Shown here piece after piece: positions 1 through 6,377 of a stretch of DNA of 9,656 nt. Position 1 is the first letter of the stretch, and every line of letters begins with the position of its first letter. This DNA comes from a virus (taxonomy: Duplodnaviria; Heunggongvirae; Uroviricota; Caudoviricetes). The stretch lies in the IMG/VR virus record IMGVR_UViG_2663762849_000015; one strand, given 5' to 3'. A program made the translations under genes and the position numbers. The notes beneath the pieces are model-generated. The model worked only from the letters and a program-made list of their open reading frames with translations, was not told where the DNA came from and did no database searches.

Positions 1-494
1 CCGGGAAACAGCGCACCGTCCGTCTCAGTCGGTGTCGCCAGCACAAACGAGGCCGTCATGGCTGTCAGCTCCGACATCTGCTCCACCACCCAGCGGTCAC
101 TCAGCTCCTGCTCCGGGTCCGCCTCCGGATTGCCCGCAACGAAATTCACCGCATCCAGAAAACGGGCATACACCCGGCGGCGGACCACCGTGGCCCCCAC
201 CAGGCTCTGCAAATCCTCCGCCATTCCGGTGACAAGACCAAACAGATTGGACACCGTCAGCAACGGTCTGGCACTGCTGCCCTTCCCGCTCATCTCAAAA
301 CCGCTACCGTCAATCGGGTATGCCTGATATTGCCGCCCCTGCCAGGTGACCGGCTCCCCTTTTTCATTCAGCTCATTGCAGAAAAAATACCGCTCACCGC
401 CCTGCACCGTCAGGTCGATTTCCCAGAGCACCACCCGCGGTGACTGCTCTGATTTAACCGACTCGTTCAGACTTTCTTCGTGAATATCCTGCAT
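1..494 (-). CDS. L: Minor tail protein L (lambda gpL-like), N-terminal ~164 codons; 3' end lies beyond the window start
   Basis: Not in the ORF track because it runs off the window edge. Hand translation of the minus strand from ATG at 494..492 gives MQDIHEESLNESVKSEQSPRVVLWEIDLTVQGGERYFFCNELNEKGEPVTWQGRQYQAYPIDGSGFEMSGKGSSARPLLTVSNLFGLVTGMAEDLQSLVGATVVRRRVYARFLDAVNFVAGNPEADPEQELSDRWVVEQMSELTAMTASFVLATPTETDGALFP with no stop, closely matching my recollection of lambda gpL (MQDIRQETLNE...VVLWEIDLT...GGERYFFCNE...). Sits downstream of M in lambda gene order. Confidence 0.85.
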   Translation of the reverse strand, partial: MQDIHEESLNESVKSEQSPRVVLWEIDLTVQGGERYFFCNELNEKGEPVTWQGRQYQAYPIDGSGFEMSGKGSSARPLLTVSNLFGLVTGMAEDLQSLVGATVVRRRVYARFLDAVNFVAGNPEADPEQELSDRWVVEQMSELTAMTASFVLATPTETDGALFP

Positions 495-504
495 ATATCC
501 GCCC

Positions 505-530
505 ATAAAAAAGGGGCGCAGACGCGCCCC
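505..530 (-). terminator. Rho-independent terminator ending the porin cassette, immediately upstream of L
   Basis: Plus 513-530 is GGGGCGC-agac-GCGCCCC, a perfect 7-bp GC stem with 4-nt loop. On the minus strand the hairpin is followed directly by TTTTTTAT (plus 505-512 ataaaaaa). About 175 nt downstream of the porin stop and ~12 nt upstream of the L start. Confidence 0.65.
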
Positions 531-625
531 GAACAATAAAAGTCCAATTTAAAATAAAACCAATAAAGGTAATAACAGAAAGTTAAATCAGCACATGCCA
601 GATGGCAATTGCTGATCGCAGTGAC

Positions 626-648
626 CAATGAAAACTGTGTTTTCATTG
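626..648. repeat. Perfect 10-bp inverted repeat with 3-nt spacer (caatgaaaac-tgt-gttttcattg) in the porin 3' region; function unknown
   Basis: Read directly from the sequence: arms 626-635 and 639-648 are exact reverse complements. Lies in the untranslated stretch between the porin stop (704) and the terminator (505-530). Could be an RNA hairpin or a dimeric protein-binding site. Confidence 0.6.
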
Positions 649-703
649 ATACAGGCCGCCTGTAAGGGCAGACGGCCCGTATTTATTAACTTATCAGCAA
701 TAA

Positions 704-1867
704 TCAGAACTGATAAGTCATACCCACAGCAACGATATTATCTGTCGCAACACCGGCTTTCCGGGTAAATTCACTTTCATCAATCAGGTTAATTTTATAA
801 TCAACATAGGTGGACATATTCTTGTTAAAGTAATAAGTCGCTCCGACATCAATATATTTAACCAGATCCTGATCGCCATGGTTCACACCACCAACCATAA
901 CATCCTGTCCGCGGGACTGAAGGTAGGCCAGGGACGGGCGCAGACCAAAATCAAACTGATACTGCAGTACCGCTTCAAAGTTTTGCGCTTTATCTGCAAC
1001 TCCTTTATCACCAAAGGTCGTCAGATTCTGAGTTTCGGAATATGTTGTAGCCAGGTAAAGGTTGTCAGCATCGTATTTTAGTCCGACTCCCCACATCTCA
1101 GCGTGTTTACCTTTTGCAACACTACCGGAATCAACAACGATCTGCTTTTCAGTCACTTTACCGGTTAAAGGATCAGTTTGTTCAATCGTCAGAGTACCAT
1201 TCAGACCTTTTTCCTGATTATTGGTTCGGTCCGCATTAATATATGCGGCAACGATACCAAAACCTTCATATTCATAACTGGCTGAGAAACCGTGACCATC
1301 ACCATTAGCTTTCCGGAGATCACCCCGATCATTTTTACCCTGGTACTGTGCCGCAAAATTCAGGCCATCGACAAGCCCAAAGAAATCTGTATTACGATAG
1401 GTTAATACCCCGGAAGTACGGGCTGTCATGAAGTTATCGGTCTGGGTCCAGCCATCACCGCCAAACTCTGGTAATACGTCAGTATAAGAACCAACATCGT
1501 ACGCAATACCATAGTTACGACCATAATCAATGGTGCCAAACTCACCAAACTTCAGACCTGCAAATGCAAGACGGGTTTTATTACCCGCAGCACCCTCTGA
1601 TTCAGCTTTATTACCAGAGAACTGATATTCCCACTGACCAAAACCAGTCAACTGGTCATTAATCTGAGTTTCACCTTTAAAGCCCAGACGTGCGTATGTC
1701 TTATCTCCATCATCCCCCTTATCACTGGAGAAATAATGGAGTGCAGTTGCACGCCCATACACATCAAGTTTATTGCCATCTTTATTGTATACTTCTGCAG
1801 CCTGCGCCCCCGCTGCAAAAATTACAGCTGCTGCCACAGCTGAAAGTGCCACTGTCATTTTTTTCAT
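704..1867 (-). CDS. Outer membrane general porin, OmpC/OmpF/PhoE family (phage-borne NmpC/Lc/OmpD-like), apparently intact
   Basis: 387-aa ORF with ATG start at 1867 and AAGGA Shine-Dalgarno ~8 nt upstream. N-terminal signal peptide [23 protein letters not shown] followed by [15 protein letters not shown]. Porin hallmarks: [63 protein letters not shown]-terminal ...VAVGMTYQF ending in Phe. Visibly lower GC than the flanking phage genes. Confidence 0.93.
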
Positions 1868-2073
1868 GATTTAATCCTTATTTAAACTGAACTATTCATG
1901 CATAGAGATGTCATGAACAAAACTCAAAATATTGTAAATTAAATTACGGGTTCAATTTTTATTTTGTTTCAAAATGTAAAAAAACAACTTTGATAGCACT
2001 TTATGTCAAGACAAAACAAAAATAACAAGCAAGCAAATTAATAAACGATGCTTTTAGGTTTTTTCTCAAAAAC
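1868..2073 (-). promoter_or_regulatory. AT-rich upstream regulatory region of the porin gene with candidate sigma70 promoter and an OmpR-box-like sequence
   Basis: 206-bp AT-rich non-coding gap between the M stop (2074) and the porin ATG (1867). Minus-strand TTTACATTTTGAAACAAAAT (plus 1961-1980) resembles the OmpR-binding C1 site I recall from ompC (TTTACATTTTGAAACATCTA). Candidate -35 TTGAAC (plus 1950-1955) and -10 TATTTT (plus 1926-1931) with 18-bp spacer; a consensus TTGACA hexamer also at plus 2004-2009. Exact promoter elements are not resolved. Confidence 0.5.
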
Positions 2074-2415
2074 TTATCTTATTACCTGTTCCATCATACA
2101 ACTGAAATCGCTGTACCGGGCGTTATCCGTAACACTCCACTCCCGGCACACCACCCTGACCGTCCGGTTATGTTTCGGGGGCTTCCACAAAAAAGCCCGG
2201 TAACCACCATGCCATGACAGAAACGCGGACAGTGCCTCCCGCTCAGCATCCGTTGTCACCCGAAAAACCACCTGAAAGGTCTTCAGTTGCGCATTCAGTC
2301 CTGCCGGACGACGTTGCTGATAACCGTCGCCAAACTTCACCGTCATCACCGACGGTTTCTCCGTCACCTGCATCCCTTCCCGGGGACACCAGTGAAGGGT
2401 CTTAATCTCATCCAC
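2074..2415 (-). CDS. M: Minor tail protein M (lambda gpM-like)
   Basis: 113 aa; ...IKTLHWCPREGMQVTEKPSVMTVKFGDGYQQRRPAGLNAQLKTFQV...FLWKPP... aligns with my recollection of lambda gpM (MKTFRWKVKPGMDV...VRFGDGYSQRAPAGLNANLKTY...FLWTPP). Start is GTG at 2415 preceded by GGAGG; it overlaps the 3' end of the tape measure gene. Confidence 0.9.
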   Translation of the reverse strand: MDEIKTLHWCPREGMQVTEKPSVMTVKFGDGYQQRRPAGLNAQLKTFQVVFRVTTDAEREALSAFLSWHGGYRAFLWKPPKHNRTVRVVCREWSVTDNARYSDFSCMMEQVIR

Positions 2416-5668: not shown

Positions 5669-5689
5669 AAAAAAACCGCCTCAGCGGTT
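5669..5689 (-). terminator. Terminator-like hairpin plus U-run between GT stop and tape measure start (possible attenuator)
   Basis: Minus strand reads AACCGC-UGAG-GCGGUU followed by a U-run (plus 5669-5675 is aaaaaaa): 6-bp stem, 4-nt loop. Lies between the T-frame stop (5698-5700) and the H Shine-Dalgarno. Confidence 0.4.
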
Positions 5690-5697
5690 CTCATCAT

Positions 5698-6377
5698 TCA
5701 TGACTGTGCTGCAAAGCTCAGCGCGTCTTCCAGCGCCGCAAACGGATCCACCTCCGGCTTATCCTCATCCTCGCCCCAGCAGAGCATGGCGTCCTTCAGT
5801 GCAACATTCATCCCCTGTGCCCCGAAAACCGCTTTCACGATCTGTGCATTACGGATATCCCCGCGCTCATCACCCAGCGGGGATACCCTGTCGAACTCCA
5901 TCCACATCATCGCCTCGCTCGCACTCAGGCTGTGCCGCAGTTCGGATAAGGTGCGCCCCAGACGGAGCGCAAGTCGCATCAGAAAGCGAATTTCCGGGCG
6001 GGCTACTTTTTTCTGGCCGACTCTGCATCAGCGATCAGTTCCAGTGCCTGACGCAGCAACCGGGCATGTACCGGACCATAGACGGCCAGCACCTGCTCAC
6101 GGTCGTCCGGAGTGAACACCCGTTGCAGGTCAGTATCACACAGGACATCGCAGAACAGCGTCACATCCGCTTCCAGGTTACGGCGGGTTTTCGCCACCAC
6201 CGACAGGGTATCGTCATCCTCTCCATCACCATTGAGCACTTCCTGCCACAGATACCAGGCCTCTGCCGAAGGCTCCCGCAGCACCACGCTGACATTTCTC
6301 CATTCCGGCACCTTCACCGTTTTATGACGGAACCCCGACAGTCTGGCCAGCGCCAGTGTTTTCAGATCCTTTTTCAT
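5698..6377 (-). CDS. Tail assembly chaperone GT fusion made by programmed -1 ribosomal frameshift (G frame 6377..~6009, then T frame to 5698)
   Basis: The T reading frame (ORF-track fragment 5698..5979) is open upstream to 6027 and overlaps the G 3' end in the -1 frame. The overlap contains the heptamer A AAA AAG (minus strand, plus coordinates 6012..6006) positioned as X XXY YYZ in the G frame. A slip gives ...ESARKK-VARPEIRFLMRLALRLG... This matches the conserved G/GT frameshift architecture of long-tailed phages. Confidence 0.75.
6003..6377 (-). CDS. G: Tail assembly chaperone G (zero-frame product)
   Basis: The ORF track gives 6003..6425, but the first 16 codons overlap the V gene 3' end. 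The likely start is the internal ATG at 6377 (MKKDLKTLALARLSGF...), preceded by AAGGGGA and lying 14 nt after the V stop. Ends ...ESARKK-TAG at the slippery site. Position between V and H matches lambda G. Confidence 0.75.
   Translation of the reverse strand: MKKDLKTLALARLSGFRHKTVKVPEWRNVSVVLREPSAEAWYLWQEVLNGDGEDDDTLSVVAKTRRNLEADVTLFCDVLCDTDLQRVFTPDDREQVLAVYGPVHARLLRQALELIADAESARKK
6006..6012 (-). other. -1 frameshift slippery heptamer A_AAA_AAG
   Basis: Plus 6006-6012 ctttttt is AAAAAAG on the minus strand; zero-frame codons are AAA AAG followed by TAG stop, and the -1 frame continues open for ~100 codons. Confidence 0.7.

Follow-up and report, generated by a model that had tools for sequence, protein, structure and literature searches.

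A porin cassette with an IpeX-type 3' untranslated region at the M/L tail-gene junction of an Escherichia coli prophage

The closest described relatives of the element considered here, a porin cassette between tail genes M and L of an Escherichia coli prophage, are lc of phage PA-2 and nmpC of DLP12 (qsr'). Both are phage-borne genes for general porins of the OmpD/NmpC/Lc supergroup, and the RNA of their 3' untranslated region (3'UTR), IpeX, is reported to be a repressor of OmpC and OmpF that is processed from the porin mRNA. The original IpeX work is said to be that of Castillo-Keller et al. from 2006. Two further systems serve as points of comparison: the chromosomal ompC-micF pair of E. coli, in which a porin gene is paired with an RNA that represses the other porin, and the morons lom, bor, cor and sodC, genes of foreign composition that lie between conserved late genes and encode envelope proteins expressed from the prophage. 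The cassette is part of a stretch of 9,656 nucleotides of Caudoviricetes DNA (IMG/VR record IMGVR_UViG_2663762849_000015), referred to below as the window. We think it fairly likely that this insert into a lambda/HK97-like tail module is a moron for lysogenic conversion by 'porin swap', one that would replace the OmpC and OmpF of its host with a porin of its own.

An insertion between tail genes M and L

The separation of M and L in the window is a genuine insertion. The interval between the two genes is 1579 bp long and holds a single long open reading frame (ORF; 704-1867, minus strand), with a GC content of 0.31-0.46 over positions 450-2100 whereas the flanks have 0.55-0.63. Loci L006 and L007, from phages that share the tail type and have M and L about 90% identical to those of the window, are empty sites at which the M stop overlaps the L start (TGATG; ...GTGGTGAACTGATGCAGGAC; ...GAGCAGGTGGTGAACTGATGCAGGAC). 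Homology of the window's M stops after ...GAACAGGT and resumes at the start codon of L, an ATG at 494 on the minus strand. The left junction lies within the final two codons of M, whose C-terminus reads EQVIR* in the window and EQVVN* at the empty sites (VVN* to VIR*), and the insert runs from about 2079 to 495. L itself is 96-100% identical to L of related loci. None of the 160 phage records matching both M and L spans the insert, and among the phage matches listed the two genes measure about 920 bp end to end.

An earlier, sequence-only reading of the window had M (stop at 2074) and L (start at 494) parted by a unit richer in AT than the phage genes, with an intact porin ORF, a signal peptide, and a hairpin and T-run ahead of L; every one of these elements was recovered at the same positions, and the empty sites, with M and L overlapping, answer its call for a comparison of related M-L junctions. 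The features of the locus are as follows.

1-494, minus strand: tail gene L, 5' part (minor tail protein L, extending past the window edge; TIGR01600 phage_tail_L 4e-74, Pfam Phage_tail_L 2e-59)
498-504, minus strand: GGGCGGA, putative replacement Shine-Dalgarno sequence for L supplied by the cassette (read from the sequence, 3 nt upstream of the L ATG)
507-530, minus strand: Rho-independent terminator with a 7-bp all-GC stem, a GTCT loop and U6 (terminator scan)
531-585, minus strand: single-stranded stretch of the 3'UTR, conserved and left unpaired by the consensus fold, with the seed at 585-555 (UAACUUUCUGUUAUUACCUUUAUUGGUUUUA)
586-682, minus strand: three stem-loops of the 3'UTR, H1 at 682-649, H2 at 648-626 and H3 at 617-586 (z-score of the minimum free energy (MFE), covariation)
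704-1867, minus strand: porin gene, 387 aa, with a signal peptide at aa 1-23 and a beta-hairpin extension of about 30 aa in loop L5 (aa about 221-250; Pfam Porin_1, matches in the Protein Data Bank (PDB), AlphaFold2 (AF2) model, ratio of non-synonymous to synonymous substitution rates (dN/dS))
1875-1900, minus strand: promoter-proximal block CATGAATAGTTCAGTTTAAAT and Shine-Dalgarno sequence AAGGA (1879-1875), conserved in 9 variants
1896-1891, minus strand: candidate -10 element AATAGT, which with its equally putative start site would imply a very short 5'UTR
1961-1980, minus strand: OmpR-box-like site including TTTACATTTTGAAACA (1980-1965), an exact 16-mer shared with the upstream region of K-12 ompC
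1989-2017, minus strand: distal block GTTTTGTCTTGACATAAAGTGCTATCAAA, in its best local alignment 25/29 identical to the ompC-micF intergenic region (micF promoter/marbox area)
2074-2415, minus strand: tail gene M (minor tail protein; Pfam Phage_min_tail 7e-33), its last two codons altered by the insertion

The cassette lies between genes that are adjacent in relatives, differs from them in base composition and ends in a terminator of its own. With its promoter taken as putative, it appears to fit the definition of a moron, an extra transcription unit in a phage genome, as reportedly given by Juhala et al. in 2000. The earlier reading had likewise called it moron-type, and its absence from related M-L junctions, its foreign composition, its terminator and its intact ORF under selection bear this out. 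That reading had also credited the cassette with its own promoter, which held only in part: a sigma-70 scan upstream of the porin found no recognisable consensus promoter, and the conserved region there has an OmpR box in ompC-like geometry and resembles an OmpR-dependent promoter of the ompC type. At its other end, the cassette seems to make good what the insertion took from L. The ribosome-binding site of L sits inside the 3' end of M at empty sites, and the GGGCGGA at 504-498 plausibly replaces it; this putative Shine-Dalgarno sequence is kept as GGGYGGA, AGGTGGA or GAGTGGA in 10 of 11 variants.

The earlier reading was right about the insertion, with the correction that the cassette is not singular but an old, widespread lineage fixed at the M-L junction. 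Porins of its clade are 78-96% identical to that of the window by BLASTP (81-96% over aligned columns) and were found in E. coli and one Citrobacter farmeri; beyond the clade, BLASTP identity falls to at most 70% (NmpC, Lc, OmpD and Citrobacter porins). Identity to NmpC and Lc is 66-69% by tblastn and 70-75% over ungapped columns (72.7-73.8% for the window porin), and that of the clade to OmpC, OmpN, OmpF and PhoE of K-12 is 61-63%. The clade is monophyletic in a neighbour-joining tree and adjoins the OmpD/NmpC/Lc group, so that BLASTP and phylogeny against NmpC, Lc, OmpD, OmpC and OmpN, which the earlier reading had named as the comparison to make, yield a separate clade. In the assembly collection, 478 blocks contain a porin protein identical to that of the window. 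All clade members examined in context hold the M-L position, which is kept even on a second backbone with a TMP_2-type tape measure and a 109-aa M. Of 5426 complete E. coli genomes, 111 contain the 3' non-coding element of the cassette, at no more than two places each; a good number of the carriers are Shiga-toxin-producing E. coli, and several are mouse isolates. The element is also present in 32 IMG/VR viral contigs, all in the order M-porin-L wherever the extent of the contig permits this to be read. One strain can hold several copies, since genome 643348545 in IMG/VR gives three separate proviral contigs (L137, L166 and L174), each with the porin and the 3'UTR element.

All 42 porin-bearing phage records carry the NmpC/Lc type, 66-69% identical to the window porin, and a porin of the window's clade was found in none of them. 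A one-genome-per-species scan, in which the clade itself was unsampled and which does not address its species range, found only chromosomal or NmpC-type porins (at most 69%). Our literature searches found no porin between tail genes or at the M/L junction. The element is best filed as an M/L-junction porin cassette, a relative of lc/nmpC-ipeX that is new in position and in porin clade. The nearest relative on the tree from outside the M-L position is a 378-aa E. coli porin with a long L5 (P0087; L117 3501-4637), 65-66% identical. It was considered as a clue to the origin of the cassette and set aside, as it belongs to a genomic island, beside a sulfatase and an insertion sequence (IS) element, rather than to a phage.

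The porin and its 3' untranslated region

The product of the cassette is best read as a functional general-diffusion porin. Its match to Porin_1 (PF00267; 1.3e-140) covers profile positions 1-337 of 337, and solved OmpC, PhoE and OmpK36 structures of the PDB match it at 1e-120 to 1e-128 in alignments that are gapped at aa 221-250. Residues 1-23 can be assigned to the signal peptide because mature PDB OmpC chains align from residue 24 (AEVYNK); the mature N-terminus conforms to AE(V/I)YNKDGNK, and the C-terminus has an aromatic beta-signal (MTYQF). The motif LPEFGGD of the constriction loop L3 (aa 132-138) is invariant in the alignment, while L3 itself is of low confidence in the AF2 model, a beta-barrel with a mean predicted local distance difference test score (pLDDT) of 74 and a predicted template-modelling score (pTM) of 0.73. 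The L5 extension is modelled as a beta-hairpin with strands at 224-231 and 238-246. Differences between porin variants cluster in the external loops, and L5 and L6 are hypervariable: the L5 insertion ranges from 0 to 30 residues, and some variants have insertions in L6. The ORF is intact in 17 of 17 aligned variants, and the low dN/dS among cassette variants (0.03-0.13, at dS 0.6-2.7) speaks for an old lineage and a protein under purifying selection.

Relatives of this porin are annotated as 'porin OmpC' by the Prokaryotic Genome Annotation Pipeline (PGAP), and the window porin passes the NCBIfam model for OmpC, NF007841, marginally (496.3 bits against a cut-off of 484; the PhoE and OmpF models score 475 and 469). 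We nevertheless reject it as an OmpC orthologue on phylogeny and locus: it is 63% identical to K-12 OmpC, stands in the tree apart from OmpC/OmpN and beside OmpD/NmpC/Lc, and lies between M and L without micF. The window porin is a mosaic, about its first 310 aa being identical to the L001/P0001 type and its last ~75 aa to the L109/L110 type, and in L109 a 3'UTR identical to the window's follows a different porin of 384 aa. Recombination thus shuffles porin segments and UTRs among cassettes.

The 3'UTR extends over 199 nt from the porin stop to the U-run of the terminator and folds with an MFE z-score of -8.4 relative to shuffled sequence. In a consensus fold from 11 aligned distinct variants, RNAalifold gives three hairpins, a long unpaired stretch and the terminator, with 12 compensatory pairs. 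In the four helices 98.3% of cells are paired, as against 35-46% with slid partner columns, and 11 pairs are changed on both sides, as against 3.7 +/- 1.4 in shuffles (a count reached by 0 of 500). The many G-U pairs identify the folded RNA as the porin-sense strand. Conservation of the single-stranded stretch equals that of the stems, and an unpaired 10-mer within it, UUAUUACCUU, is invariant. Selection acts on the 3'UTR as a whole, since variants that agree at only 29-58% of their four-fold degenerate sites are 71-94% identical across it. In two mouse E. coli strains (L112 and L113, 1801-2005 in each) the upper stem and loop of hairpin 3 are exactly reverse-complemented with respect to each other (CAGCAATTGCCATGCATATGCTG and CAGCATATGCATGGCAATTGCTG), and the hairpin is kept.

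The terminator reads GGGGCGC-GTCT-GCGCCCC at 530-513 and is followed by TTTTTT; its stem is invariant across the 11 variants, and a homologous terminator lies downstream of lc and nmpC. The 3'UTR as a whole fits the layout of an Hfq-type small RNA (sRNA), with a U-rich stretch before the terminator (UUUUAUUGUUC-GGGGCGC..GCGCCCC-UUUUUU) and an unpaired seed, and the terminator probably doubles as the Hfq-binding 3' module of the RNA.

Motif and covariance evidence identify this 3'UTR as a homologue of IpeX, the 3'UTR of lc and of nmpC in DLP12. The block TTCTGTTAT..TACC..TTTAT and the GGGGCG terminator are common to the 3' regions of the cassette, nmpC and lc. A covariance model (R1) built from M-L cassettes only finds five loci directly after a porin stop (nmpC of DLP12, lc of PA-2, ev207, E. 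albertii and one more), each over its full length and with E-values, which are rough, of 3e-8 to 4e-7. The earlier reading had drawn a parallel with Lc, and the likeness goes deeper than it noted, down to an RNA element that is reported to lower OmpC. An Rfam search of the window returned no family for the 3'UTR, a result that is uninformative: Rfam is without an IpeX model, because the ipeX region of DLP12 itself is unmatched. A separate promoter inside the 3' end of the porin was considered and rejected, the only candidate (TTATCA..TAAGTT) being weak and not conserved. By analogy with IpeX, the 3'UTR RNA is more likely to be made by processing of the porin mRNA than from a promoter of its own.

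Like lc and nmpC, the cassette is a self-contained unit with an AT-rich upstream region that includes the block CATGAATAG, and all three have a 3'UTR of three hairpins and a terminator in which the single-stranded region is nearly antisense to the ompC start region. Its phage carriage (flanks H, M, L, K, I and J) and its IpeX-type 3'UTR agree with an lc/nmpC-ipeX module; porin clade and position do not. In the porin of the separate clade the L5 hairpin is long and variable and L4 is short, and the cassette lies at the M/L junction on the late-gene strand, whereas the porin gene of the PA-2, DLP12 and ev207 loci occupies the interval from Q to the lysis genes and runs against late transcription; the earlier reading was correct in calling the location unusual. 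Moreover, the cassette lacks the leader of about 150 nt of lc and nmpC, its hairpin sequences are unrelated to theirs, and it has a second seed allele that matches ompF.

The two ends of the porin mRNA may also interact with each other. The motif AGTTCAGTTTAAAT in the 5' leader (1893-1880, minus strand) is complementary to TTTTAAATTGGACT in the 3'UTR (about 556-543, minus strand), and both are conserved. L100 and L114 have AGTTCAATTAAAA in the leader and TTTTAATTGAACT in the 3'UTR, which match perfectly and differ from the window's pair by a compensatory T:A to A:T change. The porin mRNA may accordingly pair 5' to 3' within itself, or the 3'UTR RNA may recognise its own transcript.

Predicted antisense targets and upstream control

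The seed at 585-555 is nearly the reverse complement of E. coli ompC mRNA from -37 to -5, including the Shine-Dalgarno sequence. Duplex energies were compared with mononucleotide shuffles, backed by a background scan of real sequence. The seed-ompC duplex has a predicted energy of -27.6 kcal/mol (z -5.2), matched by 0 of 200 shuffles, and in a background of 14,588 windows taken from E. coli and prophages ompC is the top non-self match. The duplex with ompF is weaker (-20.3 kcal/mol, z about -3), and those of the seed with the controls ompA, lamB, phoE and ompN are not significant. IpeX of DLP12 reaches -26.7 kcal/mol (z -5.3) with ompC. An ompC leader with at least 99% identity is carried by 5360 of the 5426 E. 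coli genomes.

A second seed allele (type B; L001, L099, L100 and L114) is nearly antisense to ompF from -24 to +9 and to ompC from -14 to +10. Pairing with the cassette's own start region is about background for the seeds (-5 to -15 kcal/mol), that of the window being at -11.5 kcal/mol. In the background scan, the type-B seed forms its best non-self duplex where gene G, the tail assembly chaperone gene of the phage itself, begins (L001 8146-8220, plus strand; L009 5521-5595, plus strand), at -28 to -31 kcal/mol, stronger than that with ompF, either by chance or as a phage-internal target.

Upstream of the porin, the proximal 150 nt are 65-75% conserved between variants, which is above the neutral level. 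The OmpR-box motif has one match in the window, with 0 expected from 200 shuffles, and the pattern TTTAC[AC][AT]TT[TC]T[GC]WWRC is retained in all variants; the 16-mer in it equals the opening 16 nt of what we take to be the C1 site for OmpR at E. coli ompC. As read from the sequence, the box lies about 84 nt upstream of the candidate -10 element, compared with 88 nt in ompC. Farther out, the core TCTTxxCAxAAAGTG of the distal block is conserved among variants. By analogy, the region may be an OmpR-dependent promoter of the ompC type with a very short leader. In its Pfam porin family, the shared 16-nt box and the 25/29 match to the micF promoter region, the cassette resembles ompC-micF, as it would in pairing a porin gene with an RNA predicted to repress another porin. 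It differs from ompC-micF in that a divergent micF gene is absent, the RNA is part of the porin's own 3'UTR and its predicted target is ompC itself. A divergent micF remnant was considered and rejected: the sequence GGTAATAA at the M stop straddles the insertion junction, its spacing is unlike that in K-12 and other variants lack it. A covariance-model match to micF (E 0.047) was treated as noise.

Readings of the cassette and its prophage

In the porin-swap model, the cassette would act as one transcription unit on the tail-gene strand, composed of the ompC-like control region, a short leader, the porin, the 199-nt 3'UTR and the terminator. A lysogen would express the phage porin from the ompC-like, probably OmpR-dependent promoter, and induction could strengthen expression through read-through of the late operon. 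The 3'UTR, whole or processed and protected by its three hairpins, would pair with the start regions of ompC and ompF and block their translation while sparing its own, so that the host porins would be replaced by a phage-encoded porin with different surface loops. In lambda, Q-modified late transcription ignores terminators. Q-antiterminated transcription would likewise pass the cassette terminator, and with the cassette-borne ribosome-binding site serving L, tail synthesis could go on undisturbed. The pay-offs can be conjectured to be resistance to phages and colicins that use OmpC or OmpF, fewer progeny lost on cell debris, and altered permeability or antigenicity.

A plain-cargo reading is conceivable, in which the additional porin would contribute to or alter permeability, antigenicity or adhesion and leave the host porins unaffected, with the 3' hairpins as mere mRNA stabilisers and terminators. 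Stacked 3' hairpins frequently serve just this purpose, and the intact porin under purifying selection would be equally expected, with the hypervariable L5 and L6 pointing to selection on the exposed surface itself. Such a role would, however, leave the single-stranded stretch, as conserved as the stems and with its invariant 10-mer, unaccounted for. Both allele types, moreover, are nearly antisense to the ompC or ompF start and not to their own, and the region is homologous to IpeX, which is reported to repress OmpC and OmpF. We regard plain cargo as unlikely.

Alternatively, the cassette could serve the lytic cycle rather than lysogeny, with expression mainly by late read-through that would remove or mask receptors on the dying cell and its vesicles, and so save progeny from loss, or would aid release. 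Its orientation would suit this, since it lies on the strand of the tail genes within the late operon, unlike lc and nmpC, and so would the failure to detect a consensus promoter. Pure read-through would have no need of the ompC-type control region with an OmpR box that is conserved in all variants, and the cassette is kept intact in defective prophages such as that of the window. A lytic role overlaps with the porin swap and does not exclude it; we hold it to be quite unlikely. That the cassette is a decaying, non-functional remnant of host DNA acquired by illegitimate recombination, as its AT-richness, the resemblance of its upstream region to chromosomal ompC-micF DNA and the defective state of this prophage might suggest, is very improbable and already largely refuted by intact ORFs across lineages at saturated synonymous divergence (dN/dS at most 0.13), non-coding flanks whose conservation clearly exceeds that of neutral sites, paired changes that preserve the RNA stems, and an occurrence in 111 genomes and 32 viral contigs that is always at the same junction.

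Several points weigh against a porin swap all the same. While the anatomy, conservation, RNA structure, homology to the IpeX region, complementarity and purifying selection are direct observations of this analysis, the promoter and its OmpR control, RNA processing, repression of OmpC and OmpF and the phenotype are all predicted from sequence. In the light of the negative sigma-70 scan, a promoter of its own is argued from the analogy of the OmpR box. The background runners-up to ompC reach -25 kcal/mol, a modest margin, and for the type-B seed ompF falls outside the 14 best-scoring background windows. Base pairing may not be the whole mechanism. The tail-tip protein J of related prophages, whose C-terminus was considered as a guide to the receptor, shares 99% identity with J of certain Stx2a phages and about 51% with that of lambda, from which no receptor can be assigned, and self-exclusion by the cassette is a conjecture. 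Finally, the prophage is truncated in its head genes, and the benefit here would go to the host and not to a viable phage.

Going further, we tentatively suggest that the cassette is a portable, 'programmable' device for porin replacement, although this is the less probable side of the question. Its seed would be exchangeable (anti-ompC, or anti-ompF/ompC), its own start would be spared, and 5'-3' pairing may couple translation to release or masking of the seed. If this is true, RNAs of the IpeX type would form a more extensive family with which phages rewrite the outer membrane of the host by direct antisense regulation, and the mechanism of IpeX would be settled.

The window covers the tail-encoding half of a lambda/HK97-like prophage, which lies on its minus strand in the order head-tail connector, tail completion proteins, major tail protein, chaperones G and T, HK97-type tape measure, M and the start of L. 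At the far end, the ORF at 8642-9370 (minus strand) matches only the C-terminal part of a portal gene, where relatives are called as having a 753-915-aa portal-like protein, and contains a direct repeat of about 34 aa, present twice. A fragment of a core AraC-family gene lies about 20 bp beyond it (region 8642-9644, minus strand). Matches to the segment that starts at 8600 and closes the window exist in 5416 of 5426 E. coli genomes; as the prophage is rare, these matches should come from the AraC-side end, and their near-universality makes E. coli or Shigella the host. In the short gap that separates tail gene T from the tape-measure gene, positions 5669-5736 (minus strand) weakly match the Rfam family isrK, an Hfq-binding sRNA of Salmonella Gifsy prophages, with 27 bits where the gathering score is 50 (E 0.012); the stretch ends in a terminator-like hairpin and U-run.

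The tail-tip region of this phage group is a moron hotspot. In L008-L013, which carry an identical porin, a ClpP-like protease, two Arc-like repressors and a P22-type antirepressor occur from L to K, a Cu/Zn superoxide dismutase (sodC) lies between I and J, and Lom follows J; a Hok toxin is also present. The cassette differs from lom, bor, cor and sodC, which encode small unrelated proteins that are not porins and occupy other junctions (after J, or between I and J), and we know of none among them with an RNA against host porins.

OmpC and OmpF are major entry points for phages, colicins and antibiotics, and major antigens. Their predicted silencing together with a replacement porin would change the phage susceptibility, drug permeability and serology of carrier strains, many of which are Shiga-toxin-producing E. 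coli and several others mouse isolates. The automatic 'ompC' label can mislead porin-based typing and the inference of resistance in carrier genomes. The IpeX element is not confined to lc and nmpC and belongs to a broader conserved RNA family clearly complementary to the ompC and ompF start regions, and the two seed alleles, with their conserved antisense relation, make the long-debated mechanism of IpeX directly testable.

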